Of a stretch of DNA of 32,474 bases, positions 2,280 to 32,474 are shown one piece after another; the stretch's first letter is position 1; every line of letters starts with the position of its first letter. A program made the position numbers and the translations under genes. Source of the DNA: a virus (lineage: Duplodnaviria > Heunggongvirae > Uroviricota > Caudoviricetes). The stretch lies in IMG/VR virus record IMGVR_UViG_2554235297_000015, one strand, 5' to 3'. Below the pieces are notes generated by a model that did no database searches, was not told the origin of the DNA, and saw only the letters and a list, made by a program, of their open reading frames with translations.

Positions 2280-2297
2280 TTTAAAAGGTATTTAATT

Positions 2298-4331: not shown

Positions 4332-4332
4332 C

Positions 4333-4738: not shown

Positions 4739-4768
4739 TTTAATTTGTTTTTAATTGTTATTTAAAAC

Positions 4769-4800
4769 AGGCGTAAACCCGCAGGGGCTGGCTTACGCCT
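4769..4800 (-). terminator. stem-loop downstream of the reverse-oriented gene, putative terminator
   Basis: AGGCGTAA ... TTACGCCT inverted repeat (8 bp stem). On the - strand it is followed by an A/T-rich tract. On the + strand no T-run follows. Confidence 0.4.
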
Positions 4801-4878
4801 GAATCTGAGGAAGTTTATTTATGAATATTGCTAAGCAAAAAAAATTCGCCCGCGAAATTAATCTGACAATCGTTTGTT

Positions 4879-5097
4879 TTAATCGTCTTGCGACCAGTTC
4901 TCAATCGACAGCAGATGTTCATCCAGCGCCGCAGCCAGAACGAACTCCCCACGTTCCTGAAGGCCGTGCTGGAAGTTGCGTAATTCAGAATCCAGGGCGC
5001 TGAGGTTCAGACAGCCATTTTCTGAAAGCTGTTTAACCAGAAAGCTCCACGCAGCTTTGTTAGCAGTAATTGCTGCCGCAATTTCATCATCAATCAT
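4879..5097 (-). CDS. hypothetical acidic protein, 72 aa, reverse-oriented relative to the early operon
   Basis: The - strand ATG is preceded by AGGAG with a 7 nt spacer. A stem-loop follows the stop. It is the only convincing - strand gene in the window. Confidence 0.6.
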   Translation of the reverse strand: MIDDEIAAAITANKAAWSFLVKQLSENGCLNLSALDSELRNFQHGLQERGEFVLAAALDEHLLSIENWSQDD

Positions 5098-5131
5098 TTT
5101 TTAACTCCTGATTGGGTATGTTGGGGCAGCG

Positions 5132-5140
5132 ATTATGACA
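5132..5140 (-). promoter_or_regulatory. candidate extended -10 element (TGTCATAAT) for the reverse-oriented gene
   Basis: The - strand reads TGTCATAAT about 35 nt upstream of the - strand ATG, inside an 88 bp divergent intergenic region. Confidence 0.3.
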
Positions 5141-5185
5141 AGTGTTTTGTGGTTATAAGTTGATCAAAAACAATGAGTTACAACC

Positions 5186-5896
5186 ATGAAAGATAAATAC
5201 ATTGCCAAAATCAAAAAACTGTTACGCCTTGCCAAAGGAACATCAAGCCCGGAAGAAGCCGCTAACGCTATTGCAAAAGCCCAGGCTTATATGCGCCAGC
5301 ATGGTATCAGCGAAAACGACGCGGAATTGTTCGACATTCAGGAAGCTGCCAGCGCGGGTGCGCCGAGTGACGCCAGTACGCCGCCGCGTTATATGCACAT
5401 CCTGTGTGACCTGGTCTGTAAAGCCTTCGGTGTCGAGTGTTACATCTCCGGCGAATACCGGGCTTCTGGTTCACTTAAACGTTACGTGCGTTTTTATGGT
5501 CCTGACAGCCGCCCGGAAATCGCGGCTTACGCGTTTGATGTGCTTTCCCGTCAGATGATGGCAGAGCGCAAGAAATATCAGGATAAACACTGCAAACGTT
5601 GTGGTCCGTCCACGCGGGTAGCCCGTGGCGACCAGTTCTGCGAAGGCTGGGTCTTTGGTGCCCGTGATGTCATTGCGGTGTATGACGTCTCCCCGGAAGA
5701 AAAAAGCCGCCTTGAGCTTTACAGAAAGAACCTGCACAGCACTAAGGGACTGCGCGACGGGGATATGCGCACAGCTAAAGCGTGTCGGGGTGCAGAGTTT
5801 GCCGCTACTGCCGGTTTTATCGCCGGGAAGAACGCCAGGCTGCATCAGGGGGTTAATGGTCAGAGCAACAGACCGCTGGCACTGGGGAGGGTGTAA
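5186..5896 (+). CDS. hypothetical protein with a DUF2786-like N-terminus
   Basis: 236 aa. N-terminus KIKKLLRLAKGTSSPEEAANAIAKAQAYM resembles the DUF2786 signature common in phage proteins. Cys-rich C-terminal part (CKRCG). Confidence 0.6.
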   Translation: MKDKYIAKIKKLLRLAKGTSSPEEAANAIAKAQAYMRQHGISENDAELFDIQEAASAGAPSDASTPPRYMHILCDLVCKAFGVECYISGEYRASGSLKRYVRFYGPDSRPEIAAYAFDVLSRQMMAERKKYQDKHCKRCGPSTRVARGDQFCEGWVFGARDVIAVYDVSPEEKSRLELYRKNLHSTKGLRDGDMRTAKACRGAEFAATAGFIAGKNARLHQGVNGQSNRPLALGRV

Positions 5897-5898
5897 CG

Positions 5899-6126
5899 AT
5901 GGCTTTTAAACTTCTTAGTGTTACCGAAGCAATATACCAGCCGCCCGGAGAACGCCACGAATACAGGATGAATGACGGTAGCGCGGTGGTTGAGTTCCCC
6001 GGATATCCGGGGGCTTCCCGGTGGCGGTTCTATGACAGTGTGGGACGTCGGATTATTAAAAGAACCGTGCACAACAATATGAAGGCTGCCGTAGAACGTC
6101 ATAAGAGAAGGTTTAACTGCAAATGA
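5899..6126 (+). CDS. hypothetical early protein, 75 aa
   Basis: Strong RBS GGGGAGGG 5 nt upstream of the ATG. Confidence 0.55.
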   Translation: MAFKLLSVTEAIYQPPGERHEYRMNDGSAVVEFPGYPGASRWRFYDSVGRRIIKRTVHNNMKAAVERHKRRFNCK

Positions 6127-6353
6127 AAATTGAATTTTATGACCATGGGGTCACCGCAACTATCACTATTTCTTGTTGGTTCTGGGAGTTCCACCGTTAC
6201 TTCAGAGTTGTAGATGCTGCGCTGTTTGTTGCACCGGGAGCGTTACATCACAGTGGAATCGGTATTGTTATGAACACTGTCATCAGCGGTAAAACGGTCC
6301 CGATGTTGCGGGCGTTTAAAGTGGCAAAACAGGAGGCTGGCAATGGTCATTGA
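6123..6353 (+). CDS. hypothetical early protein, 76 aa
   Basis: ATGA start/stop overlap with the upstream gene. Weak RBS. Confidence 0.35.
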   Translation: MKIEFYDHGVTATITISCWFWEFHRYFRVVDAALFVAPGALHHSGIGIVMNTVISGKTVPMLRAFKVAKQEAGNGH

Positions 6354-6657
6354 TAAAACGATAACGATAGATGTAGCCATGAATACAGGTCTGGCGCTTA
6401 TCGGTTATGGCTATATCACTTTTATGTCATTCAGGTGGTTGATTTCTTCGCTCTTTAAGCAGCGTGAAAAACATCGTTGTAAAGACAAGCGCGCGAAGGC
6501 GCTAAATGCGTTTAATGACGCTTTTGATATTGACCATATGCAACAGGGCGACCCCGCACGCGTAATTACCCGGGGAGATATTGTAATTCTTGTGTACCGG
6601 AATGAAAAAAATGAACAGGAGACAACCAGTGAGTCAGCAAACCAGAATAAGCGATAA
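6343..6657 (+). CDS. small membrane protein, 104 aa
   Basis: AGGAGG 6 nt upstream of the ATG. Hydrophobic segment GLALIGYGYITFMSFRWLISSLF followed by a charged tail. AT-rich coding sequence. Confidence 0.55.
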   Translation: MVIDKTITIDVAMNTGLALIGYGYITFMSFRWLISSLFKQREKHRCKDKRAKALNAFNDAFDIDHMQQGDPARVITRGDIVILVYRNEKNEQETTSESANQNKR

Positions 6658-6793
6658 GAGTCTGACCAGACTGATTGCCGATGCGGACAAGGTGCTGGAG
6701 CGGAACTCCCCCGTTGCCGATGAGGAATGGTGGCAGGATTTCCGGGCTGCAATGCTGGAACTTCAGGAACGTCGTCGGGAGGTGTTGAAGTGA
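6629..6793 (+). CDS. hypothetical early protein, about 54 aa
   Basis: GTG 6629 preceded by AGGAGA with a 6 nt spacer. The ORF track opens at 6590 in the same frame. Confidence 0.4.
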   Translation: MSQQTRISDKSLTRLIADADKVLERNSPVADEEWWQDFRAAMLELQERRREVLK

Positions 6794-7059
6794 GTGAATT
6801 AAAGTGTCGAATTAATGGCAATCAGATAGAACCGTGTGCGGTACTGGCAAAAGCACTCGAATATGGAAATCCAGCCTTTAAGAGTAAAGGCATATTTATC
6901 CCGGAACGCGTGAATATAAACACCGGCGAGCCAGGCTTAGACATTGCTCAAATTCACTCCGGCCAATATGTCGGTCGTGGTGTTGCCATGTGTTTTTGCC
7001 CGTTCTGTGGTGAAAGTCTGAAAACATGGAAAAAGGAGGCAACCAGTGAGCGAGATTAA
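6790..7059 (+). CDS. hypothetical Cys-rich protein, possible zinc ribbon, about 89 aa
   Basis: GTG 6790 preceded by GGGAGG with a 7 nt spacer, GTGA overlap with the upstream stop. Contains CxxxxxxxxxC and CPFCG. Confidence 0.45.
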   Translation: MSELKCRINGNQIEPCAVLAKALEYGNPAFKSKGIFIPERVNINTGEPGLDIAQIHSGQYVGRGVAMCFCPFCGESLKTWKKEATSERD

Positions 7060-7543
7060 CTATCAGGCACTGCGTGAGGTGGCAGAGGCCGCGAAGGGGG
7101 ATACGACGTGGCAGAACCTACAGGCTTTTCATGCTGCGGCTACGCCGGAGGTTGTGCAGGCGTTGCTGGATGAAAACGAAAGACTGTGTCGCGATCTGAT
7201 AGCTCGTAATGGTGAGATTGAAGGGCTTCGGGAGTGGGCAGAAGAACTGGAGGCACGGGAGGTGGCTTTGCCAGTAGCGTCATGCATTGTTGAAGATGGA
7301 TGCATGTGTGTTGATGGGTTCAGTGAGTATGTAGGTCACTCGCTACCTGATGGAATGCATGAGCTTTATGCTGCCCCGCCAGCGTCGGTAGTGCCGGAAG
7401 GACTAGTTAAAGCAGTGCGTTTCTATGAACAGGTAAAGTGTGAGAATCCGCCAGTCGAAACCGGAGCATGGAAAGACGCGGTTGACTGGGTACTCAACGA
7501 GGCTTGCCAGGCTGTAAATATTGACGCCAAAGGAGGTGCGTAA
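7046..7543 (+). CDS. hypothetical protein, possibly Ead/Ea22-like
   Basis: GTG start preceded by AAGGAGG. N-terminus ALREVAEAAKGDTTWQ...AATPEVVQALLDENERL resembles the Ead/Ea22 prophage family. The family call is from memory. Confidence 0.5.
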   Translation: MSEINYQALREVAEAAKGDTTWQNLQAFHAAATPEVVQALLDENERLCRDLIARNGEIEGLREWAEELEAREVALPVASCIVEDGCMCVDGFSEYVGHSLPDGMHELYAAPPASVVPEGLVKAVRFYEQVKCENPPVETGAWKDAVDWVLNEACQAVNIDAKGGA

Positions 7544-7712
7544 TGCGTGTAGCGTTTATCGGTTTATTACCATACCCGACTCGTTTTTGGGCTTCTGCGC
7601 TAATTGCAAAGCCACATGCCCTGATGGCTGACAGCATCATCCCGGCACAAAAGCGCCATACCGGTATTGCTGCTGCACGACGCGAAGCAAAGAAACGCAG
7701 GAGAGCAAAATG
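7544..7712 (+). CDS. small basic protein, 56 aa
   Basis: Not in the ORF track (below its size cutoff). TAATG overlap with the upstream stop, ATGA overlap with the downstream start. Confidence 0.3.
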
Positions 7713-7898
7713 ATGAAAAACCGTAAGGCAAGACTGCTGATAGCAAAGCCAGGGCAACTTATCCGTATCTCAAATCGACTTGTTGTTCACTATAGATATC
7801 TTGGTTTTAGGGAGTGGTCCTCTATTCGTTTTTACGGTGTCTGGCGAAACAGAAGCGCGACACAAAACCGCTGGAAGAATCACACTAACGCAAAGTAA
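7710..7898 (+). CDS. hypothetical early protein, 62 aa
   Basis: AGGAGA upstream of the ATG. Confidence 0.4.
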   Translation: MMKNRKARLLIAKPGQLIRISNRLVVHYRYLGFREWSSIRFYGVWRNRSATQNRWKNHTNAK

Positions 7899-7915
7899 TT
7901 AAATAATAACCAATA

Positions 7916-7943
7916 GCAGACCAAAAAGTATTTTTTGGTCTGC
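7916..7943. promoter_or_regulatory. perfect 12 bp-stem palindrome (GCAGACCAAAAA gtat TTTTTGGTCTGC)
   Basis: Seen directly in sequence, followed by a second short inverted repeat CCAAAA-N6-TTTTGG (7943..7960). Lies in a 60 bp gap after the run of small early ORFs. Confidence 0.45.
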
Positions 7944-7956
7944 CAAAAGTGATGTT

Positions 7957-8244
7957 TTGGTCATTATGAAGATTGAACAAATCGGAATGGCAGCTTTCAG
8001 GCAACAGGCTGAAAGCGGTGGCGTGGATGAGTTCGTCGTGCAGCGGTTCGGTGGTGTGTATCATCTATTCGCTGTGAATCGCCGCGCCGGGGTGTCCTAT
8101 TTTCTACAGGAACGTCGTGGCGATTACAAGACATGGCTGTCTCTTGACCGTGCCGCTGCGTTCTTGTCAGGGATTGGCGTTTCACGTTTTACCGTGCGTT
8201 TTGAGGATAACAAACATGCTGAAAAAGATGATCGGGGCCATTAA
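7957..8244 (+). CDS. hypothetical protein, 95 aa
   Basis: ORF whose 3' end overlaps the gemA start. Alternative start ATG 7966. Confidence 0.4.
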   Translation: MVIMKIEQIGMAAFRQQAESGGVDEFVVQRFGGVYHLFAVNRRAGVSYFLQERRGDYKTWLSLDRAAAFLSGIGVSRFTVRFEDNKHAEKDDRGH

Positions 8245-8614
8245 AGCCGGTCAGGCGTATCTGGGGTGGGATGATGCCCTTTATCGCCAGACGCTGGCCC
8301 GCCTGACCGGTAAAACCAGCACCACACGCTGCAATCTCGATGAACTGCGCATCATCCGGGAATACATGCACGAACAGGGATTCCCGCGCAAGGCACCCGC
8401 TGGTAAAGGTCGCCGCCCTCGTGTTGCAATGAGCAGAAAATCAGTATTATCCAAAATTGAAGCGTTGCTGGCTGATGCCGGTCGTTCCTGGGCGTATGCA
8501 GAAGGACTGGCATCTCACATGTATAAGCAACATGTGATCGAATGGCTGACGGATGAACAGCTTTTTGGAGTGATGGTGGCGCTGGTTAAAGATTCAAGAA
8601 GGAGAAATCAATGA
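8216..8614 (+). CDS. gemA: GemA-like protein (Mu gp16 family)
   Basis: N-terminus MLKKMIGAIKAGQAYLGWDDALYRQTLARLTGK resembles Mu GemA. GAGGAT 7 nt upstream of ATG 8216. The ORF track opens the same frame earlier at 8117. Confidence 0.75.
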   Translation: MLKKMIGAIKAGQAYLGWDDALYRQTLARLTGKTSTTRCNLDELRIIREYMHEQGFPRKAPAGKGRRPRVAMSRKSVLSKIEALLADAGRSWAYAEGLASHMYKQHVIEWLTDEQLFGVMVALVKDSRRRNQ

Positions 8615-9087
8615 TGAAAAAATGGTTGTTTTGTTTAGTAGGGGTTATTTTCTCTTGTTCTGTGCTGGCACAGACAGAGGAACAGGCGCAAAAGGAACTG
8701 AAACGTTATCAGGATATGAAGCCATTGGCTGAACAGATGCTTCGGGAAAGTGGAAAACTTTATTACGCTATGCCAGAAGCTGCATCGCAGTATCAGCAGG
8801 GAAATATTGAAGAGTGGAAGAATATCAAAAAAGGACTAAAACAACTGGATGAACAGGCCAGTAAACTGGGGGACGACCCGCTTGATCCTGTGTATGGTTC
8901 CTGCATAAAAATGAAAAACCAGCTACAGGATTACTGGTCTAACGTTATCAGGGATGACAGGCAGTTTCTGGAGCGTTCAAGAAATCAGTTTAAAGAATAT
9001 CGTATGGATTGTTTTGATTCGTTTGTTTTTGGTAAAGAGCAAATAGAATCAAGAAAAGGCCTGGTTATTCTAGACCTGACTAAATAA
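8611..9087 (+). CDS. secreted or periplasmic protein of unknown function, 158 aa (AT-rich moron)
   Basis: AAGGAG RBS. N-terminal signal peptide MMKKWLFCLVGVIFSCSVLA with an AxA-like cleavage site before QTEE. Coding sequence is clearly more AT-rich than the flanking genes. Its own terminator follows. Confidence 0.7.
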   Translation: MMKKWLFCLVGVIFSCSVLAQTEEQAQKELKRYQDMKPLAEQMLRESGKLYYAMPEAASQYQQGNIEEWKNIKKGLKQLDEQASKLGDDPLDPVYGSCIKMKNQLQDYWSNVIRDDRQFLERSRNQFKEYRMDCFDSFVFGKEQIESRKGLVILDLTK

Positions 9088-9098
9088 GACTTAGTTTA

Positions 9099-9125
9099 GC
9101 CCCTGCCATGCAGGGGCTTTTTTTG
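9099..9125 (+). terminator. rho-independent terminator
   Basis: GCCCCTGC catg CAGGGGC stem-loop followed by TTTTTTTG. Confidence 0.8.
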
Positions 9126-9130
9126 TGGTC

Positions 9131-9158
9131 TGTACAGGCGATCATGTATGGCTATAAT
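9131..9158 (+). promoter_or_regulatory. candidate sigma70-type promoter for the Mor/C gene
   Basis: TGTACA (9131..9136), 16 bp spacer, perfect TATAAT (9153..9158), about 30 nt upstream of the ATG at 9188. Confidence 0.35.
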
Positions 9159-9187
9159 AACAGTAAGTTACTACCGGAGACGCCATC

Positions 9188-9655
9188 ATGCAGACCTTCA
9201 GTGAAACAGATCTTCGCGATGCGCAGGCACTGCTGCCCGATTCCGTGCAGCAACTGATTAGCGTGATTGGCTTCCCCGCCCTGACCCGGTTGATTCGTTC
9301 TTTTGGTGGCGTGACGTTAAGCGGTAAAACCGGCGTACACGCCGAACGCACCGGCGGTGTCCATGCCCTGTTACATGACGTGCTCACCGAAGACGAAATC
9401 AACAAACTGATCCGCTTTCTTGGCGGTGCTCCGTTTTACATTCCCCGTTGCGATCATGCGTTACGTGCCCTGCGTAACACCCGTTTTATGGCTGATTTAC
9501 AGCAGCATGTAAAAGACGGATGCTCACACCGGCAGGCGCTGGCACTGCTCTGTCCCCGTTACGGCATTTCAGACCGGTACGCATGGCAGCTGATACACCG
9601 ACGACAAAAACAGACTTCGCTGAAAAGCCCCACCCAGGTGGGGCTTTTTGATTAA
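9188..9655 (+). CDS. Mor/C-family transcriptional activator (Mu middle/late activator family)
   Basis: 155 aa. C-terminal HTH-like segment ...RQALALLCPRYGISDRYAWQLIHRR typical of Mor/C proteins. Located between gemA and the lysis genes as in Mu. GGAGA RBS. Confidence 0.7.
   Translation: MQTFSETDLRDAQALLPDSVQQLISVIGFPALTRLIRSFGGVTLSGKTGVHAERTGGVHALLHDVLTEDEINKLIRFLGGAPFYIPRCDHALRALRNTRFMADLQQHVKDGCSHRQALALLCPRYGISDRYAWQLIHRRQKQTSLKSPTQVGLFD
9627..9649 (+). terminator. rho-independent terminator overlapping the last codons of the Mor/C gene
   Basis: GCCCCAC ccag GTGGGGC stem followed by TTTTT. Confidence 0.6.
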
Positions 9656-9681
9656 TGGGCCTCAGAAAAAAGGAGACACTT

Positions 9682-9960
9682 ATGACCAACTATATGGCAC
9701 TTGGCGAGTATACGGCCTACTCAGAGCAGGCCCGGGATGCTGCCGGACGTCGCTTTGCTTATATGAAAAATTTGGCCAGTCAGTTAAACCGAATGGCCGA
9801 ACAACCGGATATGGTTGTTCAGGAAGAAGCGTTGCAGTGTGCCATTGCTGACATCATCGCCAGCGAAAACGAGATGCGCGCAGCGATGGAAAAGGCGAAC
9901 GCCTCTGCTCCGCTTTGTAATAAACCTCTTATTACGCCGGATTCTCTTTCCCGCTTCTGA
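9682..9960 (+). CDS. hypothetical protein, 92 aa
   Basis: ATG 9682 preceded by AGGAGA with a 5 nt spacer. The ORF track opens at 9655. No family recognised. Confidence 0.5.
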   Translation: MTNYMALGEYTAYSEQARDAAGRRFAYMKNLASQLNRMAEQPDMVVQEEALQCAIADIIASENEMRAAMEKANASAPLCNKPLITPDSLSRF

Positions 9961-9979
9961 TTTATCACCCCGCCGCCGC

Positions 9980-9997
9980 GGGGTGCTGAACTCCCCC
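9980..9997 (+). promoter_or_regulatory. dyad element copy A (GGGGTG ctgaa CTCCCC), upstream of the lysis cassette
   Basis: Imperfect copy of the GGGTG-CTGAA-CACCC dyad also found at 18138 and 30056. Overlaps an 8 bp GC hairpin at 9966..9985. Confidence 0.4.
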
Positions 9998-10142
9998 AGC
10001 AGTACCCACCACACCAGACCGTTTACCCTGTCCACTCAGACCACAAGGCACCTTAAGGGATAGCGCCCTGCAAAAGGCTTTTGTGCCTTTGACAGGGTGT
10101 TATTTACGGGCCGTCAGTGGCTCAGATTTACAGGAGAAACTC

Positions 10143-10535
10143 ATGTCTGAACCCTTATCAGGCGGCGGAGCTGTGGCAGTCACCATCGGTGGTGCCAGTG
10201 TGTTTGGCCTTCTCACCAATACCGATTTCGGGGTCGTGGTGGGCGCGTTTGCCGGGGCGCTTTTTGTTGTCACTCAGCAGAAAGAAATCCCGGTATGGCG
10301 AATGGCTATTCACCTGCTCGTCGCGTTTGTGGTTGGCGTTCTGGGGGCTGGCGTGGCTGCGTCACTGATGCAGTGGCTGACCCACTACAACGACAAACCG
10401 CTTGATGCATTGTGTGCGGTCGGTGTCTCGGCGTTATCCATCAAGATACTGACCTTTCTTTATCAACAGGAAATTTCATCGCTGTTCGGCCTGTTTTCCA
10501 GACTGCGCGGCGGAGGGGGTGGAAATGGAAAGTAG
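10143..10535 (+). CDS. holin-like membrane protein, 131 aa
   Basis: AGGAG with a 6 nt spacer before ATG 10143. Three to four hydrophobic helices. Immediately upstream of the endolysin. Confidence 0.6.
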   Translation: MSEPLSGGGAVAVTIGGASVFGLLTNTDFGVVVGAFAGALFVVTQQKEIPVWRMAIHLLVAFVVGVLGAGVAASLMQWLTHYNDKPLDALCAVGVSALSIKILTFLYQQEISSLFGLFSRLRGGGGGNGK

Positions 10536-10821
10536 CCTTGCCGGTATCGTGAACGTCTGGCTGTGTCTCGCCATTGTGCTGGGGTTGTTTGTGTATCGCC
10601 GCCACGGTGCGGCGCATAAACCGATGATTACCTGGCTGGCGTACTGGCTGATGCTCGGCTACATCATCATCCCGTTCCGCTGGCTGTCCGGTACATACAC
10701 GCACTCCAGCTGGCTGGTTGTGGCGCTGAATCTGGTTTTCTGTGCGCTTATCGTGTGGGCGCACGGGAATTTGTCAAAAATCCTTTCGTTACTGAGGCAT
10801 CCACATGAAATCAAAAGATGA
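10525..10821 (+). CDS. second small membrane protein, holin- or antiholin-like
   Basis: GGAGGGGG upstream. Three hydrophobic segments. The ORF track start is GTG 10519. Confidence 0.55.
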   Translation: MESSLAGIVNVWLCLAIVLGLFVYRRHGAAHKPMITWLAYWLMLGYIIIPFRWLSGTYTHSSWLVVALNLVFCALIVWAHGNLSKILSLLRHPHEIKR

Positions 10822-24599: not shown

Positions 24600-26862
24600 T
24601 TTCAAAGTTGGCATGACCCTGACTGCGAAGGACGAAGCCTCGCAGGTTCTGGAAAAGGGACAAAAACAGGTTATCAAAGCCACCGAAGGTGTAACAAAGG
24701 CAACCCGGAAGGCAGGCGCAGAGCAGACGCGTACCGGGCAGGAAAGCGTTAACAGCACGAAAAAGGCGGCAAAAGAGATACAGCGTGCCGCCCGTGCCCG
24801 GGAAACGCTCGGTATTCGTGCAGAACGTGAAATCCGGCGTGAAATTTATCAGACGGTTGCCAGCTATAACCGTCTGGCCCGCGCCGGTTTTGAATCTGCG
24901 CAGGAGCAGGAGCGCGCCATGCAGGCCACCCGGGAAAAAGCCCGGGCACTCAAGCGTGAACTGGATGGCGTTACTCAGGCTCAGATGAAGATGGCGAAAA
25001 CGCCTGTTATCCCTGAACCGGGGCGTTTTGCGCGTGCGGCTGCATTTGGCGGGAATGCCATGACAATAGGCGGCGGAATTATGGCAGGAGCCGCCATTAT
25101 GACGCAACCAGTCAGAAATCAAATGAGTTATGAACGTCAGCTCAGCATGATGGCGAACACGGCGTTCAGTGATGGTGGTCTGGAAGGCAGGCAGTTTGGG
25201 CGTGAAAAGCTGAAAAACAGTATCCGCGCGGCGGTAACGTATGGTGGCGGAACGAAAGAGGATGCAGCTGAAGCAATGAATGAGATGTTGGCCAGCGGCG
25301 CTTTTTCCTGGGATACCGCGAATAATCTCTTACCGCAGATTATGAAATTTGCTACTGCATCCGGCGCATCTCCACGCGATCTGGTCACTATGGCGGCCAA
25401 AGCTAAACAAACATTTGGACTGACAGATGACGACCTCCCGGCCATGTTTAATATGGCTGTCGCAGCAGGTAAAGCGGGTAATTTTGAGCTACGGGATATG
25501 GCGGAATATCTTGGACCTCAGATGGCATTAGCTGGTAACGCCGGAATGAAAGGACTGGATGGACTCCAGAAATTACTGGCATTTAATGAGGTCGCAGGGA
25601 TTGCCGCAGGCAGCAGCAGTGAAGCAGGTAATAACGTTGTAAACCTGCTGGCCAAACTTTTCAGTAGTGAATCAGCAACAAGGGCGAAAAGCATCACGAT
25701 TGATGGCAAAGGTATTGATCTACCTGGTACGTTGACCCGAGCTATGGAAAACGGCATTGATCCGATAGAAGCATTTTCACGCCTCACTGATAAAGTCACC
25801 GCGAACAACAAACAATATCAGGAGCTTCAGAAGCGTCTGGCAGCAACAAAAGACAAAGGCCAGCAGGACAAAATCCTAGAGTCTATGGCGAAAATTCTTG
25901 AGGGGTTCGGTGTTGGTGAGCTTGTTGGTGATATGCAGGCACTGAAGGCAATCCTGGCTTACAGGAATAACCCGGAATACCGAAAGCAGGTCGAAACTGA
26001 AATCAGTCAGCAACGCACCCTGCCGGAAGGTCAGCGCGCCGGAGATCTGGATTTTAAATTCATGTCAGGTACGAATGATTTTAAAACCGAACAGGCTAAA
26101 AACACGCTTGAATTTTCACAAATGGACAGCGTGAAAAAGCTGGCTGATGCGTCCGGTGCTGTGGCCGATGCCATAAGCTGGGCGGGTGAAAAGTTCCCGG
26201 GACTGACCACGGCAGTGGTGGGTGCCACGACCGCCATTGAAGCGATGACCGCAGCGGCCCTGACATGGGCCGGGATCAAAATCCTGACCGGGGGTAAACC
26301 CGGTGGCAAGGCTGGCGAGGTTGTCGGTGATGTCATTGAAAACACGGTCAAAAAAGGCAAAGGATTTAAATTCCCCGGCATCGCCGGTAGCCTGCTTTCT
26401 TTCGGTGGCACCGTTACGGCACTGGCCACCGCAACCAGCCCGGAGGAAGACGCCGCCGTCGAAGGAAGCGAAGAACGCTGGAAACGCATCCGCGCCCGAT
26501 ACACCCAGGAAGAAATCGACGCCGCCCGCAAAAAATACCAGCCATGGTGGCAGTTTGGGGAAGGCTATTCCACCGAAAACGAAGAATGGTTGAGGCGCTG
26601 GGAGGAAGACAGGAAAAAAGCCGCAGCTGATGCCCTGCCATCACCGGCGCAGGTTAACAAAGCCGCAGGAAACACAAAGCCTGAACCGGCATCAACTCAA
26701 CCCGGACGCATCACCCAGCCGGAATACCTCACGCACTGGGGACCACCTGCCAGTCCCATTAATTTCACCACACAACTGGTGCTCGATGGTCAGGTTGTGG
26801 CGGAGGCAGTGAACAAATACAACCTTCAGGACGGTAACAGAGGTACGGGAGGAACTTACTGA
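24589..26862 (+). CDS. tail tape measure protein, Mu gp42-like
   Basis: 757 aa, Ala/Gly-rich, hydrophobic stretch near the C-terminal third. Confidence 0.85.
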   Translation: MAGNFKVGMTLTAKDEASQVLEKGQKQVIKATEGVTKATRKAGAEQTRTGQESVNSTKKAAKEIQRAARARETLGIRAEREIRREIYQTVASYNRLARAGFESAQEQERAMQATREKARALKRELDGVTQAQMKMAKTPVIPEPGRFARAAAFGGNAMTIGGGIMAGAAIMTQPVRNQMSYERQLSMMANTAFSDGGLEGRQFGREKLKNSIRAAVTYGGGTKEDAAEAMNEMLASGAFSWDTANNLLPQIMKFATASGASPRDLVTMAAKAKQTFGLTDDDLPAMFNMAVAAGKAGNFELRDMAEYLGPQMALAGNAGMKGLDGLQKLLAFNEVAGIAAGSSSEAGNNVVNLLAKLFSSESATRAKSITIDGKGIDLPGTLTRAMENGIDPIEAFSRLTDKVTANNKQYQELQKRLAATKDKGQQDKILESMAKILEGFGVGELVGDMQALKAILAYRNNPEYRKQVETEISQQRTLPEGQRAGDLDFKFMSGTNDFKTEQAKNTLEFSQMDSVKKLADASGAVADAISWAGEKFPGLTTAVVGATTAIEAMTAAALTWAGIKILTGGKPGGKAGEVVGDVIENTVKKGKGFKFPGIAGSLLSFGGTVTALATATSPEEDAAVEGSEERWKRIRARYTQEEIDAARKKYQPWWQFGEGYSTENEEWLRRWEEDRKKAAADALPSPAQVNKAAGNTKPEPASTQPGRITQPEYLTHWGPPASPINFTTQLVLDGQVVAEAVNKYNLQDGNRGTGGTY

Positions 26863-28211
26863 TGGGCTGGGCTGAAAACCTGCAAAACGCTTCCTTTCGT
26901 GGCGTGCAGTTTGAGGTGCTGAATACTGACGAACAAATCAGCCGCGACCATGCGGTCTATGAATACCCGTTTGTTGACGGGGCGGATTTGCACGACCTCG
27001 GACGCAAGGCGCGACCGTTCCGCATGACGGCGTTCCTGTGGGGCGATGACTATGAATATAAACTCGGGAAACTGACCGCCGCCCTGGATGAAGGCGGCGA
27101 TGGTGAACTGATTCATCCGGTTTATGGCTCTGTGCCGTCGGTGATTGTGACCGGCTACAGCATCCGCCATGACGCAGAAAGCCCGGACAGCTGCACCATT
27201 GACATGAGTTTTCTGGAAAACCGCACCGGTAGCGCGTTGTTCAGCACCCCGTTACCGGAGCTGTTCGCGCAACAGTTGTTTGATGAACTGGACACTTTAC
27301 AGGCGCGGTTAAGTGATTTTTTTGATGCCGTTACTGCACCTTTAAATACCGTTAACAGCATGATTAAAAAAGCCCAGACAGTGCGTGCCACACTGGTGAA
27401 TACCCTGCTGTCGTTCAAAAGTGATTTTGTCTCCACTGTCGATAATATCGTGTCACTGGCAGGCGAACCCGGAAAATTTATCAATGAACTGGCAGAGGTG
27501 CTGGAAATCCACACATCAGATGTCGGGCAACCGGTGCAGGTTCTGCAACGTGTTGATTCTGCCACCCGGACCGGGTTGGCAGGAGAGACGACCGTCGCCA
27601 GTTCTGCGACAGTGATGAACTGCTGGAATAAGGTCATCACTGATATGGATGAATTTGTTGCGTTGCCTGTTACCCTGGTCAGTGGCGATAAAGTAGCGGA
27701 GGTGGCACTTCCTGTGGATGCCTCGCCAGACGATGTGCAGGATGTGAAAGCAGTTTACGCAACACAGGCCGCATCTGAACTGGCCAGTGTTGCAATGGCG
27801 ATACTGGTTGATGATGCGCAGTCAGAACAGCTTATACCGGCGGATATCGGGCGACTGGTCGGGGATGTGCGCACCCGCTTACAGGCTGTCATCACGCTGT
27901 TCCGTGAACGCTATGAAGGCGAACGCGAACGGATAACCGAAACCGCATCACCACTGGGGCTGATGTACCCAGAAATCATTCAGAGCATGAAGAACGTGGC
28001 GGCATCCGTGCAGGATGTCGGCCTGCTGGTTCTGTCACGCCGCCCACCGCTGACGCAGAAACAGGTGCAGGCGGACAGCTGTCTGCTGTTGCTGGCGTGT
28101 CAGTGGTACGGTGATTACAGCCGTGCGGCAGAGCTGCAACGTCTGAACCCGCAGCTGCGTGACCCGAACAACATAACCGCCGGGATGGTGATTAATGCCT
28201 ACGCAAAATAA
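26862..28211 (+). CDS. DNA circularization protein, Mu N (gp43)-like
   Basis: 449 aa. N-terminal region resembles the Mu N DNA-circularisation domain. Follows the tape measure gene. Confidence 0.8.
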   Translation: MGWAENLQNASFRGVQFEVLNTDEQISRDHAVYEYPFVDGADLHDLGRKARPFRMTAFLWGDDYEYKLGKLTAALDEGGDGELIHPVYGSVPSVIVTGYSIRHDAESPDSCTIDMSFLENRTGSALFSTPLPELFAQQLFDELDTLQARLSDFFDAVTAPLNTVNSMIKKAQTVRATLVNTLLSFKSDFVSTVDNIVSLAGEPGKFINELAEVLEIHTSDVGQPVQVLQRVDSATRTGLAGETTVASSATVMNCWNKVITDMDEFVALPVTLVSGDKVAEVALPVDASPDDVQDVKAVYATQAASELASVAMAILVDDAQSEQLIPADIGRLVGDVRTRLQAVITLFRERYEGERERITETASPLGLMYPEIIQSMKNVAASVQDVGLLVLSRRPPLTQKQVQADSCLLLLACQWYGDYSRAAELQRLNPQLRDPNNITAGMVINAYAK

Positions 28212-29406
28212 CGACGACAAAATCAGCCTGGTCATTGCCGGAAGGTCGCATTCTGACTGGAGCAGTTATCGTATTGACAGCGATTTCCTGAAAGCCGCCG
28301 ACGGCTGGCAGCTTCAGCTGGGACTGCCTGAAAAGGTGTTCCCGGCGGATATCGTCCGGGGCGCGCCGGTCCGGTTGCAGGTGGGAGACGAGACGGTGCT
28401 CAGTGGTCGCGTGGACAGCGTGCGCCGCAGTGTATCCCGTCAGAGCTGCACGCTGGCCCTGTCCGGGCGTGATGATGCTGCCATTCTGGTGGACTGTGCC
28501 GCGCCGGTGTTCAGCGCCAATCAGCTGACGCTGGACGAGGTCATCGACAGGATAGTCAGACCACTGGGGATACAGCGCATCCGTATACAGGCGTCCGGCG
28601 TGTCACGTAATGACAAAGTTGTTATTGAGCCTGGGATGCGTGCGTGGGATGCACTGGCCAAAGCTGCCGCCGGTCGCGGCTTATGGCCGTGGTTTGAGCC
28701 TGACGGGACGCTGGTTGTGGGTGGCCCTGACTACACCACCACGCCGGTGGATACGCTGATTCTGAAGCTGAACGGCACCGGGAACAACGTGATGGAGCTG
28801 GACGATACCCGGTCCATTAACGGCTGTTTCTCCGAACTTACTGTGCTGGCCCAGAGCCACGCCCGCCGCGCAGACAGCAAGAAACAGGTGGCCGTGGTGC
28901 CGCTGGATATCTGGAACGAGGACGGCAGCGTGCGCACATTGTCCGGGCAGGACAGCGGTAATACGGACAGTGGCCAGACAGGCATTCATAACATGAAAGC
29001 CGTTGCCACCGACCCCACCGTGGATTATTACCGCCCGCAGATAATCACCCAGGGCGACACCAGCAATCTGGAGCAGGTGAACTGGCGCGCAAAAAAAATG
29101 ATGAGTGATGCCCGCCTGTCGGGGCTGGATATCGTCGCGCTGGTTGCAGGTCATCGCACGGCAGATGGTGTTCTGTGGCAGCCCGGCCAGCGGGTGCGGA
29201 TTGTCAGCGAACTCCACGGCATTGATGCCATCTTTTTCCTGATGGGGCGTGAGTTCAGCGGAGGCCGGAACGGGCAGACAACCCGGCTCCGCTTTAAGGA
29301 GGACGGCGTGTGGATACCTGATGCCTTCCCGCGCGAGAAGAAACGCCATCACCGCAGGGGCAAAAAGAAAAAAGAGGTCGCCATTGTTAAGGTCTGGGAG
29401 AAATGA
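28195..29406 (+). CDS. baseplate hub/tail protein, Mu P (gp44)-like
   Basis: 403 aa, conserved position. Confidence 0.8.
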   Translation: MPTQNNDDKISLVIAGRSHSDWSSYRIDSDFLKAADGWQLQLGLPEKVFPADIVRGAPVRLQVGDETVLSGRVDSVRRSVSRQSCTLALSGRDDAAILVDCAAPVFSANQLTLDEVIDRIVRPLGIQRIRIQASGVSRNDKVVIEPGMRAWDALAKAAAGRGLWPWFEPDGTLVVGGPDYTTTPVDTLILKLNGTGNNVMELDDTRSINGCFSELTVLAQSHARRADSKKQVAVVPLDIWNEDGSVRTLSGQDSGNTDSGQTGIHNMKAVATDPTVDYYRPQIITQGDTSNLEQVNWRAKKMMSDARLSGLDIVALVAGHRTADGVLWQPGQRVRIVSELHGIDAIFFLMGREFSGGRNGQTTRLRFKEDGVWIPDAFPREKKRHHRRGKKKKEVAIVKVWEK

Positions 29407-30056
29407 TGTGGGACAAAGTTAATCAACGCGTACAGCAGGCACTGGCCGCCGTTCGCCAGGCATTCAGGGTGGTGACCGGTACGGTGGACAGTTCGACCAA
29501 AGTACAGCTGCTTCAGCTTAACGGGCTGGCTGGCGAACAGCTGGACGGTGCGGAGTATTTTCAGCATTACGGCCTCACCACATCCCCGCCGCCCGGCTCA
29601 ATGGGTATTGCCGTTCCGCTGAACGGCAATACCTCCCATACTGTCGTGGTGGCCACAGAGCACGGCGCATATCGTCTGACGGAACTGAAACCCGGGGAAG
29701 TGGCCCTGTATACCGATGAAGGCGCGAAAATCGTACTGAAGCGCGGACGGGTTATTGAAACCGAATGTGACGTTTATCGCGTGAAATGCAAACGCTACGA
29801 GGTTGAGGCAGAGGAGAACGCCACATTCACGACACCGTTACTGACAGCCAGTGACAGGCTGACGGTGGAAGGCAAAATCACCGGCAACGGTGGCATGGCC
29901 ATCAGTGGAGGCAAGGGATACACTGCCACCTTTGAAGGCAATATCAACCATGTGGGTGGAGTGATTACCTCCGTTGACGTCACCATTAATGGCGTTAAAA
30001 TCGGAACGCACAAACATCCAACCCCACACGGCATGTCTGACACGCCGGTTAATTAA
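29403..30056 (+). CDS. baseplate assembly/spike protein, Mu gp45-like
   Basis: 217 aa, ATGA overlap with P. Confidence 0.75.
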   Translation: MMWDKVNQRVQQALAAVRQAFRVVTGTVDSSTKVQLLQLNGLAGEQLDGAEYFQHYGLTTSPPPGSMGIAVPLNGNTSHTVVVATEHGAYRLTELKPGEVALYTDEGAKIVLKRGRVIETECDVYRVKCKRYEVEAEENATFTTPLLTASDRLTVEGKITGNGGMAISGGKGYTATFEGNINHVGGVITSVDVTINGVKIGTHKHPTPHGMSDTPVN

Positions 30057-30070
30057 GTGCTGAACACCCT
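30056..30070 (+). promoter_or_regulatory. dyad element copy C (AGTG ctgaa CACCCT), between gp45 and gp46
   Basis: Starts at the last base of the gp45 stop codon. About 40 nt upstream of the gp46 ATG. Confidence 0.4.
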
Positions 30071-30109
30071 CACCTGATTCTGACCTGTCCATGCTGCCAG
30101 ACTGGCGGC

Positions 30110-30460
30110 ATGGACCAGACGATTTCACCTGCAACCGGCGACTACGAACGCCGTCGGATTTATACCCTTCATAACGCGGTTTATCTGCGACTGGCGACGC
30201 CGCTTGGCAGTTACTGGGCGGATGCGTTGCTGGGGTCACGCCTGCACGAGCTGAAGCGGGAAAAAGACGTTTCCCGTGTTCATAAGCTTGCGGCGCAGTA
30301 TGCCAGCCAGGCACTTCAGCCCCTGCTCGATGACGGGCGGGCAAAATCCATTACCGTTGACACAAAACCGGGGCAGCGCGGCTGGTTGTTGCTGTTAATC
30401 ACCGTCACGGATAACGCGGGCACACCGCAGACGTTTGAACACCCTGTGAGGATTATGTAA
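30110..30460 (+). CDS. baseplate protein, Mu gp46-like
   Basis: 116 aa, precedes the baseplate J-like gene. Confidence 0.7.
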   Translation: MDQTISPATGDYERRRIYTLHNAVYLRLATPLGSYWADALLGSRLHELKREKDVSRVHKLAAQYASQALQPLLDDGRAKSITVDTKPGQRGWLLLLITVTDNAGTPQTFEHPVRIM

Positions 30461-31539
30461 TGCCGTTTCCTGTTCCGGGCGTTGCTGAAAACACAGAACG
30501 CCAGCTACGTGATATCGCTAACGCCCTGCCGGGCGAAACCATCGACACCGGCGCTGACAGCGATTACCGCATTCGTGCAAATGCCGTATCCGGCGTGGCG
30601 GACGGACTGTATATGCATCAGGGGTGGATACTCCGTCAGGTGTTTCCTGATACGGCAGACCCTGAATATCTGGAGTTGCACTGCCGCACGCGCAATGTTT
30701 TTCGTAAAAAAGCAACGGCCTCATCCGGTCCGGCAGTGATTACCGGCACACCCGGTAAGACGCTGCCAGCCGGTGCGGAAATTCGTGGTGAAGGTGTCAG
30801 CGTGGCCACCGCAGCAGACTGCACCGTCGGTGATGAAGGCAGCGCAGAGGTGACGGTAAAAAGCACTGCCACGGGTGCACAGACGAATGCATCCACGACG
30901 CAGACGGCAACGCTGGTCAGCCCACCTGAAGGCATCAACAGCACGGTGACGATTAAATCCCTGACCGGCGGAACGGACAGGGAAAGCGACGCCGACCTGC
31001 TGGCGCGTTATCTGGATATTCTGCGCAGGCCGCCCGCTGGCGGTAATAAATATGATTACAAACGCTGGGCGCTGGAAGTGGATGGCGTTACGTCTGCGTA
31101 TGTGGAGCCGTTGCGTCGTGGACTGGGGACGGTTGATGTGGCCATTACGTCAGCCAATGACCTCCCTTCGCAGGAACTGATTAATGCCGTGCTGGCACAT
31201 ATTGAGGAAGTCCGCCCGGTGACAGCGAAGGACACGATGGTGCTGGCCCCGACGAAAAAAGCCGTTGATTTCGTTGTCCGGGTAAAAACCAGTGGTCTTA
31301 CTGTTGAACAGATAAAACCACAGATAACTGAAGTTATCACGGATTTTATGAACCGGCTGGAGCCGGGGCAGGAATTAATTATTTCACAACTGGAAACTCA
31401 GATTTCATTAATTTCTGGCATCAGTGACCGGCGAATTATTATGCCGTCAGATAATGTAAAAGCAGTTGTCAATGAATCCACATGGGAGTGGCTGCGTCCG
31501 GGGAATATTGATATCCAGCCATTTCCCCGGGAGAGTTAA
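30460..31539 (+). CDS. baseplate J-like protein, Mu gp47-like
   Basis: 359 aa, ATGA overlap with gp46. Confidence 0.8.
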   Translation: MPFPVPGVAENTERQLRDIANALPGETIDTGADSDYRIRANAVSGVADGLYMHQGWILRQVFPDTADPEYLELHCRTRNVFRKKATASSGPAVITGTPGKTLPAGAEIRGEGVSVATAADCTVGDEGSAEVTVKSTATGAQTNASTTQTATLVSPPEGINSTVTIKSLTGGTDRESDADLLARYLDILRRPPAGGNKYDYKRWALEVDGVTSAYVEPLRRGLGTVDVAITSANDLPSQELINAVLAHIEEVRPVTAKDTMVLAPTKKAVDFVVRVKTSGLTVEQIKPQITEVITDFMNRLEPGQELIISQLETQISLISGISDRRIIMPSDNVKAVVNESTWEWLRPGNIDIQPFPRES

Positions 31540-31542
31540 TAC

Positions 31543-32115
31543 ATGAATACGGTTGATTTATTTCGTGCCATGTTACCACCGGTCAGCTATGACCCGAACG
31601 GGAAATATATTTCAGCAGAACTGAACGCAGAAGCAGCCATTATGGATGAAGTAAAAGCGTCAGCTGCACGAGTGCTTGCATCTGTCACACCATTTTACGC
31701 ATCCATGACGCTGTCTGACTGGGAACGAGTGTATGGAGTAATACCCCGCGACGGTGCCACACAGCAGGAACGCCGAGAAAATATTCTTATAAAGATGGCT
31801 GCAACTGGTGGGTTATCTATCCCTTATTTTAAACAACTTGCAGCCAGCCTCGGGTACACCATAACAATTACTGAACTTCATCCATTCAGAGCGGGGATAA
31901 ACCGATGTGGTGATCGTCTCTATATAACAGATGCCCGATGGATTTGGCAGGTTAATGTCACAGGAAGCAGAACGCCAGCCTACAGATTCAGAACCGGAGT
32001 ATCTGCTGCCGGGGAGCCGTTACTTTCCTTTGGTGCCCCTGTACTGGAAGAAACATTTAAAGACCTTAAACCCGCTTTTACTTATTGCCATTTCACATAT
32101 AAGGAGGAGCAGTAA
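31543..32115 (+). CDS. tail protein, Mu gp48-like (DUF2313)
   Basis: 190 aa, AT-richer than upstream tail genes. Confidence 0.7.
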
Positions 32116-32474
32116 TGCAAAATCTGATGCCCCCGATAAATACACCGGATCAATTGTTTCATGATGGTGACCCCACTCAGGGGATAGAAGGAACCCTCGT
32201 GACTGCTGGTTATTTAAACAATCAGCAGGGGGCAACCCGTGATTTACAGCAGGAACTCCTTAATGTTCTTGGTGGTGCACATATTCAACCTGACCCCAAA
32301 AAAACGGATCAGCTACTTACCGCGCTTCGCGCGTTGCTGTTAAGCCGCAAGAATCCGTTTGGCGATATCAAATTGGACGGCACGGTGCAAAAGGCTCTCG
32401 AAAACCTTGGTTTGGGAGAAACGATAGATAAAGCCTCCGGAGCTATGCAGAAATCGGCTAATGGATCTGATATT
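32115..32474 (+). CDS. tail fibre protein, N-terminal part (truncated by the window end)
   Basis: Open frame from ATG 32115 (TAATG overlap with gp48) to the last base of the window, 120 codons without a stop. Position matches the Mu tail fibre gene. Confidence 0.55.

Follow-up and report, generated by a model that had tools for sequence, protein, structure and literature searches.

A probable recombinational exchange of the tail-fibre arm, beginning inside gp47, in a Mu-like prophage of Escherichia coli

The right arm of a Mu-like prophage of E. coli, comprising the 3' end of gp47, the gp48/YmfQ gene and the tail fibre, is best explained as a module that was swapped in by recombination from a related, AT-richer Mu-like lineage (probability about 0.85). 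The window, i.e. the whole stretch of DNA that was analysed (32,474 nucleotides; IMG/VR record IMGVR_UViG_2554235297_000015), had been described before from its letters alone. This preliminary description proposed that a host-range module had been acquired by recombination from a different lineage. Recombination is supported by a jump in synonymous divergence and by incongruent trees. The source lineage, however, is a related Mu-like one and not another type of phage.

The element in the window is a Mu-like transposable prophage of the E2348/69 type. Positions 1-32420 are 100% identical to E. coli E2348/69. The window codes for a MuA-like DDE transposase (237-2279; Pfam Mu-transpos_C, 1.4e-16; HTH_Tnp_Mu_1, 1.1e-10; rve) and a MuB-like ATPase (2298-3191; Pfam matches to AAA_22/TniB). 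In every genome examined, the insertion sites are unrelated between hosts (eut (eutC/eutA), mel (melA), phn, scpC, ypdE, a TonB-receptor gene and others). The baseplate genes have the Mu-type order gp43(N)-gp44(P)-gp45-gp46-gp47-gp48-fibre, and the products of the relatives carry the corresponding domains in the order DNA_circ_N, GpP-like, Phage_Mu_Gp45, GP46, Baseplate_J and Phage_Mu_Gp48. In E2348/69 and in a second genome, tcmA_3, the prophage ends with ...GAAGTTACA, where the two genomes diverge (right end only). No specific earlier account of the E2348/69 Mu-like prophage emerged from a literature search. The gene calls of the preliminary description are correct (Baseplate_J/gp47 at 30460-31539, Mu gp48/YmfQ at 31543-32115, tail fibre from 32115). 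The features around the left edge of the arm are the following:

30460..31539, plus strand: gp47 baseplate wedge gene, Baseplate J family (Pfam Baseplate_J, E=5e-67; Mu gp47 in PDB 9ki1 (9ki1_H), E=6.5e-44)
31243..31292, plus strand: probable left recombination junction, at its most likely position (flanking polymorphisms 31242/31293; GC and GC3 changepoints 31255 and 31257)
31293..31415, plus strand: transition zone (window-specific A/T substitutions at 31293-31332; 31333-31415 nearly identical in both alleles)
31416..31539, plus strand: gp47 3' end, strongly divergent, type A (mismatch changepoint 31416; dS 1.1-1.6)
31543..32115, plus strand: gp48/YmfQ baseplate wedge protein (fibre adaptor), AT-rich type A allele (Pfam Phage_Mu_Gp48, E=2e-30; gp48 in PDB 9ki1 (9ki1_a), E=1.5e-7)

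Two alternative right arms occur on one and the same backbone. In the backbone region 30110-31249, all 59-60 complete-genome relatives are at least 94% identical to the window. In 31250-32120, the same relatives fall into 23 with at least 90% identity, which carry the AT-rich allele (type A), and 36 with 77-78% identity (type B). Thus, about 36 complete E. coli genomes have a backbone that is 94-97% identical up to about 31250, then a GC-normal gp47 3' end and gp48/YmfQ at 72-78%, and then an unrelated fibre set. In the type B prophages of UMNF18, C5 and STEC306-308, the high identity extends through gp44, gp45, gp46 and the first 795 nt of gp47, with the same gene order, and conservation is about 80% in the ~75 bp at the right end. 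The gp47 gene of the window is accordingly split into 795 nt of backbone type at the 5' side and a 3' end of the presumably imported type. Downstream, type A has the constant fibre part (Sc) and an invertible Sv/U-U'/Sv' cassette. Type B has a fibre, a chaperone, a second fibre and a DUF4376 protein but no invertible segment, and shows its own GC3 drop at about 32031, near the ymfQ end. The first 156 nt of the fibre gene are 73-79% identical between the window and its relatives; beyond them, there is no DNA similarity to the type B fibres. The alternative alleles are unlikely to be assembly artefacts because four E2348/69 assemblies and several unrelated strains have identical sequence.

Synonymous divergence changes abruptly along this region. 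From gp44 to the gp47 5' part, dS is 0.10-0.25. It rises to 1.1-1.6 at the 3' end of gp47 and to 1.9-2.5 in ymfQ, and it is 1.3-2.1 over codons 1-52 of the fibre gene. In contrast, dN is low throughout (0.10-0.15, with dN/dS about 0.06-0.08), which argues for purifying selection and not for diversification in place. Trees from eight taxa, computed with a simple JC/NJ method, are incongruent across the junction with 100% bootstrap on both sides, in line with the exchange that had been proposed. The backbone tree (gp44 to the gp47 5' part) joins the window to E. coli C5 and UMNF18 (100%; 94-97% identity). For ymfQ, C5 and UMNF18 group with a third E. coli prophage (GCA_017019575) to the exclusion of the window (100%). 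The identity matrices agree with this incongruence. By neighbour-joining, the window ymfQ is the long-branched sister of the clade of type B and GCA_017019575 (86%) and is still inside the Citrobacter split (95%), so that the source would be a fairly close relative. Compared with the alleles of type B, GCA_017019575 and Citrobacter, the window ymfQ shows 72-73.5% identity in each case, a distance that AT-biased change may inflate. A truncated remnant from Citrobacter braakii (L011) was left out of the comparisons.

For the direction of the event, it is relevant that the type B ymfQ keeps the relatedness order of the backbone, with 92% identity between two type B prophages, 84-85% to GCA_017019575 and 78-80% to Citrobacter, and that its GC3 (0.60-0.62) is backbone-like. 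Because this allele tracks the backbone tree, we infer that the AT-rich allele is the import. Among five outgroup prophages examined (from other Enterobacteriaceae, with 80-90% backbone identity), none carries the AT-rich allele. The polarity might be the reverse, the AT-rich arm being the original partner of the backbone and the GC-normal type B allele the import. This would agree with the AT-rich allele being known on this backbone only and with both alleles being common (23 versus 36 complete genomes), and the direction is provable only with the donor at hand. Such a reversal is nevertheless improbable, given the relatedness order and the GC3 of the type B ymfQ, and given that at the variant sites in 31293-31332 it is the window that departs from nearly all other taxa.

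The exchange coincides with a compositional break. The sequence had been perceived as AT-richer from about 31250 through gp48 into the fibre gene, and this holds up quantitatively: the shift is significant and sits at synonymous third positions. GC is 0.460 in 31250-32474 versus 0.565 in the late region 10000-31249 (z = -4.6 relative to same-length windows of that region). An equally low GC is reached in only 0.08% of all upstream windows, all of them in the early region near 7.8-8.5 kb. When 28000-32474 was scanned, the maximum-likelihood changepoint was 31255 for GC (2-log-likelihood interval 31228-31299) and 31257 for GC3 (interval 31245-31296), where GC3 falls from 0.652 to 0.407 (LLR 35.3; none of 500 permutations as high). 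By segment, GC3 is 0.59 in the gp47 5' part (30460-31248), 0.41 in its 3' part (31249-31539), 0.39 in ymfQ and 0.44 in the fibre N-terminus.

Without any transfer, the AT-richness would have to stem from amino-acid composition or from codon preferences peculiar to the genes in question (gp47 C-terminal domain, gp48 and fibre). Some dip in the last ~290 nt of gp47 is indeed present in all relatives (an Intestinirhabdus-like prophage goes from 0.586 to 0.522 with GC3 unchanged), and the fibre genes of Mu itself are AT-richer than its baseplate genes. Carriers of the type B allele also dip, to a GC of about 0.44 in 31255-31415, mostly via codon positions 1+2. Therefore, a small part of the GC dip is intrinsic to the gp47 C-terminal domain. 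The compositional changepoint (31255-31257) also precedes the first allele-specific site (31293) by 36-38 nt, so that the edge seen in the composition is partly intrinsic as well. As an account of the whole shift, however, this explanation is already largely refuted and very unlikely. In the window, it is the third positions that shift, while positions 1+2 barely move (LLR 4.4); seven relatives with the same protein family have a ymfQ GC of 0.51-0.59 and GC3 of 0.54-0.68 (window: 0.464 and 0.387); and the dS jump and the tree incongruence would be left unexplained.

That the junction lies inside gp47, as the preliminary description had stated, is confirmed, but it is a zone (31243-31416) rather than a point. 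The Pfam model on gp47 treats residues 69-313 as a single domain. Compared with type B, ordinary backbone polymorphism ends at 31242, and sites specific to the window begin at 31293. The mismatch rate has its changepoint at 31416, rising from 0.04-0.05 to 0.26 (LLR 126-142; none of 1000 permutations as high). A single sharp junction at 31416, 160 nt from the GC changepoint, was considered and dropped, as 31333-31415 is nearly identical in both alleles (dS 0.06-0.12, against 0.65-0.97 in 31294-31332). The window-specific A/T sites at 31293-31332 place the junction further back, most likely at 31243-31292. In the transition zone, eight of eight differences from UMNF18 have A/T in the window and G/C in the other sequence (binomial p=0.008); in the backbone, the corresponding counts are 65:63. 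Elsewhere among the carriers of the AT-rich allele, the switch falls at different points within 31293-31415. Altogether, there are five different left junctions among these carriers, that of the window and at least four others, which range from 31299 to about 31590. In gp47 residue numbers, the junctions correspond to ~262-278, ~284-287, ~321-326 and ~353 onward.

Rapid evolution in place without recombination, by diversifying selection on host range or local AT-biased mutation, would fit the long branch of the window ymfQ, the frequent diversifying selection on host-range proteins and the A/T skew of the window relative to type B (ymfQ, 84:40; 31255-31415, 8:0), but it can practically be dismissed in view of saturated synonymous sites (dS 1.9-2.5) beside a backbone at 0.1-0.25 with dN/dS of about 0.06-0.08, the sharp boundary, the joining of the same allele to type B sequence at five different points, the fibre without any similarity to type B fibres past codon 52, and the gap in protein identity described below.

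The donor is a related yet unsampled Mu-like lineage. Among 5.8 billion sequences, no protein is 80%-97% identical to the YmfQ of the window; the nearest non-A proteins are at most 80% identical (next-closest 74-80%). In the complete E. coli genomes, in eight IMG/VR contigs (all carriers found in an IMG/VR scan) and in 10 contexts sampled from 4,470 assembly blocks via exact-protein look-up, the AT-rich ymfQ always stands beside the same backbone, and no donor was found. Megablast and blastn searches of isolated phages with 28000-32474 and 29400-32474 yielded no donor either, only a ~114-bp fibre block (see below) and a 68.5% match to a Klebsiella phage. A YmfQ scan of species-representative genomes returned only two distant matches (45-49%), a Burkholderiaceae MAG and Snodgrassella. 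For gp47, the best isolated-phage matches belong to the SuMu group: Klebsiella phage ST405-OXA48phi1.1 (49%), Haemophilus SuMu (43%) and Mannheimia vB_MhM_3927AP2 (44%). These phages are distant, and their DNA similarity is confined to about 300 nt of gp47, ending near 31268. The three also give the best matches for YmfQ, at 50.5%, 40% and 37%, respectively. Because isolated phages rank in the same order with either protein, the source is assigned to a related Mu-like lineage and not to another phage type.

The right end of the window reaches into an invertible fibre segment, with these features:

32115..32474, plus strand: tail-fibre gene, with its constant N-terminal part (Sc) and 18 codons from the start of the variable part; continues beyond the window
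32307..32423, plus strand: ~114 bp block common to the tail-fibre genes of many unrelated E. coli prophages
32395..32420, unstranded: gix-like crossover site at the left of the invertible fibre segment, CTCTCGAAAACC TT GGTTTGGGAGAA; inverted repeat with a second site
32421..32474, plus strand: initial 54 nt of the invertible segment, inverted relative to the E2348/69 reference

The fibre ORF continues in tcmA_3 to a 253-aa fibre with a Gp53-like_C domain. The common block is found with 89-96.5% identity in about 1,900 of 5,426 complete E. coli genomes, K-12 and e14 stfP included, and is 93% identical to the fibres of SfV/SfI/SfII. The left crossover site is located inside the fibre gene and pairs with a site 1,883 nt downstream in E2348/69 (19-nt arm, 95% complementary). 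Its core matches that of Mu gixL, TTATCCAAAACC TC GGTTTACAGGAA. Identity to E2348/69 stops exactly at 32420; the remaining 54 nt match the inner right end of the E2348/69 segment at 100% after reverse complementation, and tcmA_3, read directly, at 98%. Relative to four E2348/69 assemblies, which match the window at 100% everywhere else, the segment in the window is thus inverted. Both orientations exist, since the segment interiors of E2348/69 and tcmA_3 are 99.8% identical as reverse complements. The fibre tips and their cognate chaperones are oppositely oriented, and each tip is in frame with the constant part after inversion, so that intact fibres of 249 aa and 253 aa are formed, one per orientation, each followed by a Caudo_TAP protein. 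The invertible segment and the invertase to which the preliminary description had pointed have fared differently: the segment exists, but an adjacent functional serine invertase is absent from the downstream region. Only a stub of 31 codons is left (MFIGYVRASTNDQDTDLQRNALNCAGYELIF and a stop), annotated as a 93-nt invertase pseudogene in four further genomes. Its homology to Mu gin ends at about codon 35, and the prophage ends ~95 nt further on.

This organization resembles the host-range region of phage Mu (gp47-gp48-S-U / G segment / gin). The gene order gp44-gp45-gp46-gp47-gp48-fibre is shared, gp47 and gp48 have homologues among the Mu proteins of solved structure, and behind a constant fibre N-terminus lies an invertible segment that codes for two oppositely oriented pairs of fibre tip and chaperone. 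Its crossover site has the AAAACC-NN-GGTTT core of gixL. In Mu too, the fibre region is AT-richer than the baseplate genes, but the drop begins there at the fibre gene S (gp48 0.527, Sc 0.473), while here it begins ~860 nt earlier, inside gp47. Further differences are the low protein identity to Mu (32-33% for gp47, about 27% for gp48), the short fibres, the invertase reduced to a stub and the lack of mom. Exchange of tail-fibre modules among unrelated coliphages has been known since the early 1990s (P2 H, P1 S, Mu S, lambda stf, and the e14 and p15B invertible regions). The present case shares with those the mosaic fibre genes with sharp junctions, the interchangeable tips with cognate chaperones, and the conserved block beside the crossover site that is common to many unrelated prophages. 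It differs in that the unit reaches past the fibre into the wedge (gp48 and the gp47 C-terminal part), and in that the exchange documented here is between closely related Mu-like prophages.

In the preferred scenario, a right arm of other history, consisting of the last ~250-290 nt of gp47, then gp48/YmfQ and the beginning of the tail fibre, would have reached the backbone through homologous recombination, the partner being a Mu-like lineage that is related but AT-richer and about 25-28% divergent. The crossover in the window would have occurred inside gp47, probably within 31243-31292, leaving a patchy transition up to 31416. According to the Mu cryo-EM structure, the wedge consists of gp46, two gp47 and gp48, and the fibre N-terminus is anchored on loop 133-155 of gp48 (PMC11915804). 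By analogy, the imported piece may keep together parts that must fit together, which would be the functional reason for the co-transfer of the gp47 3' end, gp48 and fibre. The imported gp48 would have come with its own fibre N-terminus and the downstream Gin-type invertible cassette with its two alternative tips and chaperones. One gp48 allele is linked to many different fibres, ranging from 221 to 791 aa. It is tempting to speculate, although this is less likely than not, that the exchangeable unit is an "adaptor cassette" (gp47 C-terminal part, whole gp48, fibre N-terminus) that recombines repeatedly in a ~350-nt zone (31243 to about 31590) and plugs the backbone into a separate fibre pool, here a Gin-type cassette without an invertase of its own, which might be flipped by the invertase of another resident element.

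Horizontal exchange of AT-rich, mosaic fibre modules and inversion of the Gin type belong to textbook knowledge, and swapping such modules is a well-known phage route to new host range. Current understanding is thus unchanged by this case of ordinary, well-documented tail-fibre-module mosaicism. It provides a clean, quantitative example of how host range would change in temperate myophages, with one backbone, two alternative right arms and several joining points; the swap in the window may have altered host range accordingly. Because the left edge of the exchangeable unit sits inside gp47, upstream of gp48, the interface to preserve when engineering chimeric tails or tailocins would be that formed by the gp47 C-terminus, gp48 and the fibre N-terminus.

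The element is, judging from its sequence, a Mu-like transposable prophage, because it encodes a MuA-type transposase and a MuB-like ATPase, has the Mu gene order (tape measure, gp43 (DNA circularisation), gp44, gp45, gp46, gp47, gp48, fibre), and has relatives inserted in a different chromosomal gene in each genome examined. Bases 1-32420 match the chromosome of E. coli O127:H6 E2348/69, an enteropathogenic strain, at 100% identity in four independent assemblies. The relevant features of the window are:

237-2279, MuA-type transposase
2298-3191, MuB-like ATPase
30460-31539, gp47, the Baseplate_J wedge gene; its 3' end is the start of the AT-rich tract
31543-32115, gp48/YmfQ, the fibre adaptor, inside the AT-rich tract
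from 32115, tail fibre (start only), inside the AT-rich tract
32395-32420, gix-like crossover site

The AT-rich shift noticed from about 31250 holds up quantitatively: GC is 0.460 in 31250-32474 versus 0.565 in 10000-31249 (z = -4.6 relative to late-region windows of equal length). GC as low as this occurs elsewhere only in the early region, at about 7.7-8.5 kb. The early region as a whole (1-9999) is AT-richer on average (GC 0.506), with patchy values between 0.42 and 0.56 in 500-nt steps. When 28000-32474 was scanned, the maximum-likelihood changepoint fell at 31255 (interval 31228-31299). For GC3, it is at 31257 (31245-31296), with a drop from 0.65 to 0.41 (LLR 35, reached in 0/500 permutations). 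Codon positions 1+2 give an LLR of only 4.4; the composition shift is located at synonymous sites.

This prophage type is carried by about 60 complete E. coli genomes. In 30110-31249, every one of these matches the window at 94% identity or more, and 31250-32120 divides them into 23 with at least 90% identity (type A, the AT-rich allele of the window) and 36 with 77-78% (type B, the GC-normal alternative, e.g., UMNF18 and C5). Compared to UMNF18 and C5, the window shows 91-100% identity per 200 nt in 28000-31399, dropping to 0.81 and then 0.70-0.76 beyond. The mismatch changepoint against type B is at 31416 (LLR 126-142, reached in 0/1000 permutations). The window's ymfQ is an outlier (GC 0.464, GC3 0.387) versus the normal composition of type B ymfQ (GC 0.54, GC3 0.60-0.62) and that of five further relatives (GC 0.51-0.59 in E. 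coli, Citrobacter, Enterobacter, an Intestinirhabdus-like source and Aeromonas). In 31255-31415, GC is also low in type B relatives (~0.44, chiefly via positions 1+2), and therefore a minor share of the visible dip is a property of this gp47 segment itself. Further mosaic patches occur in the tape-measure and gp43 genes. In 25000-26000, identity of the window is 59-64% with UMNF18 and tcmA_3 (a type A carrier), yet 93-99% with C5; against UMNF18 and C5, 26400-26800 and 27200-27800 reach 74-85%. In 27400-27800, it again has the lower-GC allele (0.52-0.53 vs. 0.59-0.62).

Incongruent phylogenies across the junction, which the preliminary description led us to expect, were obtained with 100% bootstrap on each side. 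The tree for gp44 through the 5' part of gp47 puts the window together with C5 and UMNF18; GCA_017019575 (an E. coli prophage relative), Citrobacter and then the others follow in closeness. For ymfQ, a cluster of C5, UMNF18 and GCA_017019575 excludes the window, which is near-equidistant (72-73.5%) from these three and from Citrobacter, while the mutual order of the four is the same as in the backbone. Between the window and type B, synonymous divergence amounts to 0.10-0.25 in gp44, gp45, gp46 and gp47 codons 1-265, but 1.1-1.6 in 31416-31536, 1.9-2.5 in ymfQ and 1.3-2.1 in fibre codons 1-52; dN is only 0.10-0.15. Such a pattern is the outcome to be expected of recombination with a diverged relative; neither amino-acid composition nor local selection yields it. 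Type B follows the backbone in tree and composition, so that the AT-rich type A arm is, as we infer the polarity, more likely the import.

The breaks in composition (31255-31257) and in mismatches (31416) appear 160 nt apart, a gap that the sites around it account for. No difference separates the window from type B in 31247-31292, and hardly any does in 31333-31415. In between (31293-31332), there are 7-8 differences, in all of which the window has A/T where type B has G/C (p = 0.008; backbone ratio 65:63), and at nearly all of these the window is unlike all other taxa too. Because of this allele-site pattern, the junction, already suspected inside gp47, is most likely at 31243-31292 (codons ~262-278). 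The left junctions of other type A carriers were read from 214 allele-diagnostic sites. Those of tcmA_3 and TUM1881 are the same as in the window, F163 has type B sites at 31299-31320, and the allele switch is at 31309-31319 in AZ146 and AVS0151, at 31421-31436 in 47-1826 and, in patchy form, at ~31516-31587 in Ec55. These differing junctions show that the exchange took place repeatedly. All type A carriers scored have the same backbone.

As an exact protein match, the window's YmfQ occurs in 4,470 assembly blocks. In ten of its contexts, which have differing neighbours, the upstream backbone is always the same, but the fibres that follow range from 221 to 791 aa. The next-closest YmfQ proteins among 5.8 billion proteins have 74-80% identity. 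The search gave no donor lineage; eight IMG/VR contigs with the AT-rich allele likewise share the window's backbone. For both gp47 and YmfQ, the top isolated phages are the same distant relatives: Klebsiella phage ST405-OXA48phi1.1 (~50%), then SuMu and a Mannheimia phage. This makes a related Mu-like lineage the source: the module appears recombined from another lineage, as had been proposed, but not from another type of phage.

The first 156 nt of the fibre gene are 73-79% identical to relatives; past these, it has no similarity to type B fibres, and the prophage is alignable with type B again only in its last ~75 bp (~80%). A block of ~114 bp (32307-32423), which ends with the crossover site, is found at 89-96.5% identity in ~1,900 of the 5,426 complete E. 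coli genomes, K-12 and e14 stfP included, as well as in SfV-type phages. It may be a common recombination handle for fibre-tip swaps between unrelated prophages. In some type A gp48 carriers (L013 (Ec55), L014 (AZ146), L017 (AVS0151) and L039), a long fibre (672-791 aa, with a Peptidase_S74 chaperone domain in L039) replaces the invertible cassette; they part from the window at ~32374-32393, just ahead of the crossover site.

The search for an invertible segment downstream was successful. The partner crossover site is 1,883 nt downstream in E2348/69, and the segment interior is 99.8% identical between E2348/69 and tcmA_3 as reverse complement. The last 54 nt of the window are the reverse complement of the inner right end in E2348/69, so the segment is flipped relative to the four assemblies otherwise identical to the window. 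Either orientation gives an intact fibre, of 249 or 253 aa, accompanied by a chaperone of its own. Of the invertase looked for alongside, only a remnant is present, a stub of 31 codons (MFIGYVRASTNDQDTDLQRNALNCAGYELIF*; 12985-13182 in L001, the E2348/69 locus, equivalent to just past the window's end). Its homology to Mu gin ends near codon 35, and the prophage ends ~95 nt beyond; annotations of other carriers show this stub too. Since both orientations nevertheless exist in otherwise identical sequences, the flip was presumably made by an invertase encoded on another element.

Two relatives appear rearranged or decayed. In L034 (GCA_949766195.1, 3.68 Mb; 5573-10573), the invertible segment adjoins, inversely oriented, baseplate genes of another phage (Phage_Wedge1, Baseplate_J, Sheath_initiator), which suggests inversion or recombination between two prophages via fibre or crossover sequences; this genome also has a second, decayed prophage copy (L033). 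L011 (Citrobacter braakii CP099379.1, 5655-9499), apparently a decayed or rearranged relative of this prophage type, is a short remnant reduced to a truncated gp47, gp48 and a fibre, with a CI-like repressor gene alongside.

In the Mu cryo-EM structure, the wedge consists of gp46, two gp47 and gp48, and a loop of gp48 holds the fibre N-terminus (PMC11915804). The window's gp47 and gp48 match the solved Mu chains. A recombinant acquiring gp48 plus its matching fibre N-terminus would preserve the gp48-fibre interface, which may be the reason for the joint transfer of these genes. Crossovers in the gp47 3' end or the ymfQ start are evidently tolerated. Mu has the same theme, with GC of 0.53-0.555 in baseplate genes and 0.44-0.47 in the fibre, chaperone and gin genes. 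In Mu, however, the GC drop begins at the fibre gene, whereas the window's AT-rich tract starts ~860 nt earlier, inside gp47; in type B prophages, GC3 drops at ~32031. Horizontal exchange of fibre modules and inversion of the Gin/Pin/Cin type are long established. The feature is a fresh, well-resolved case of this known phenomenon, with the observation confirmed and the interpretation supported.
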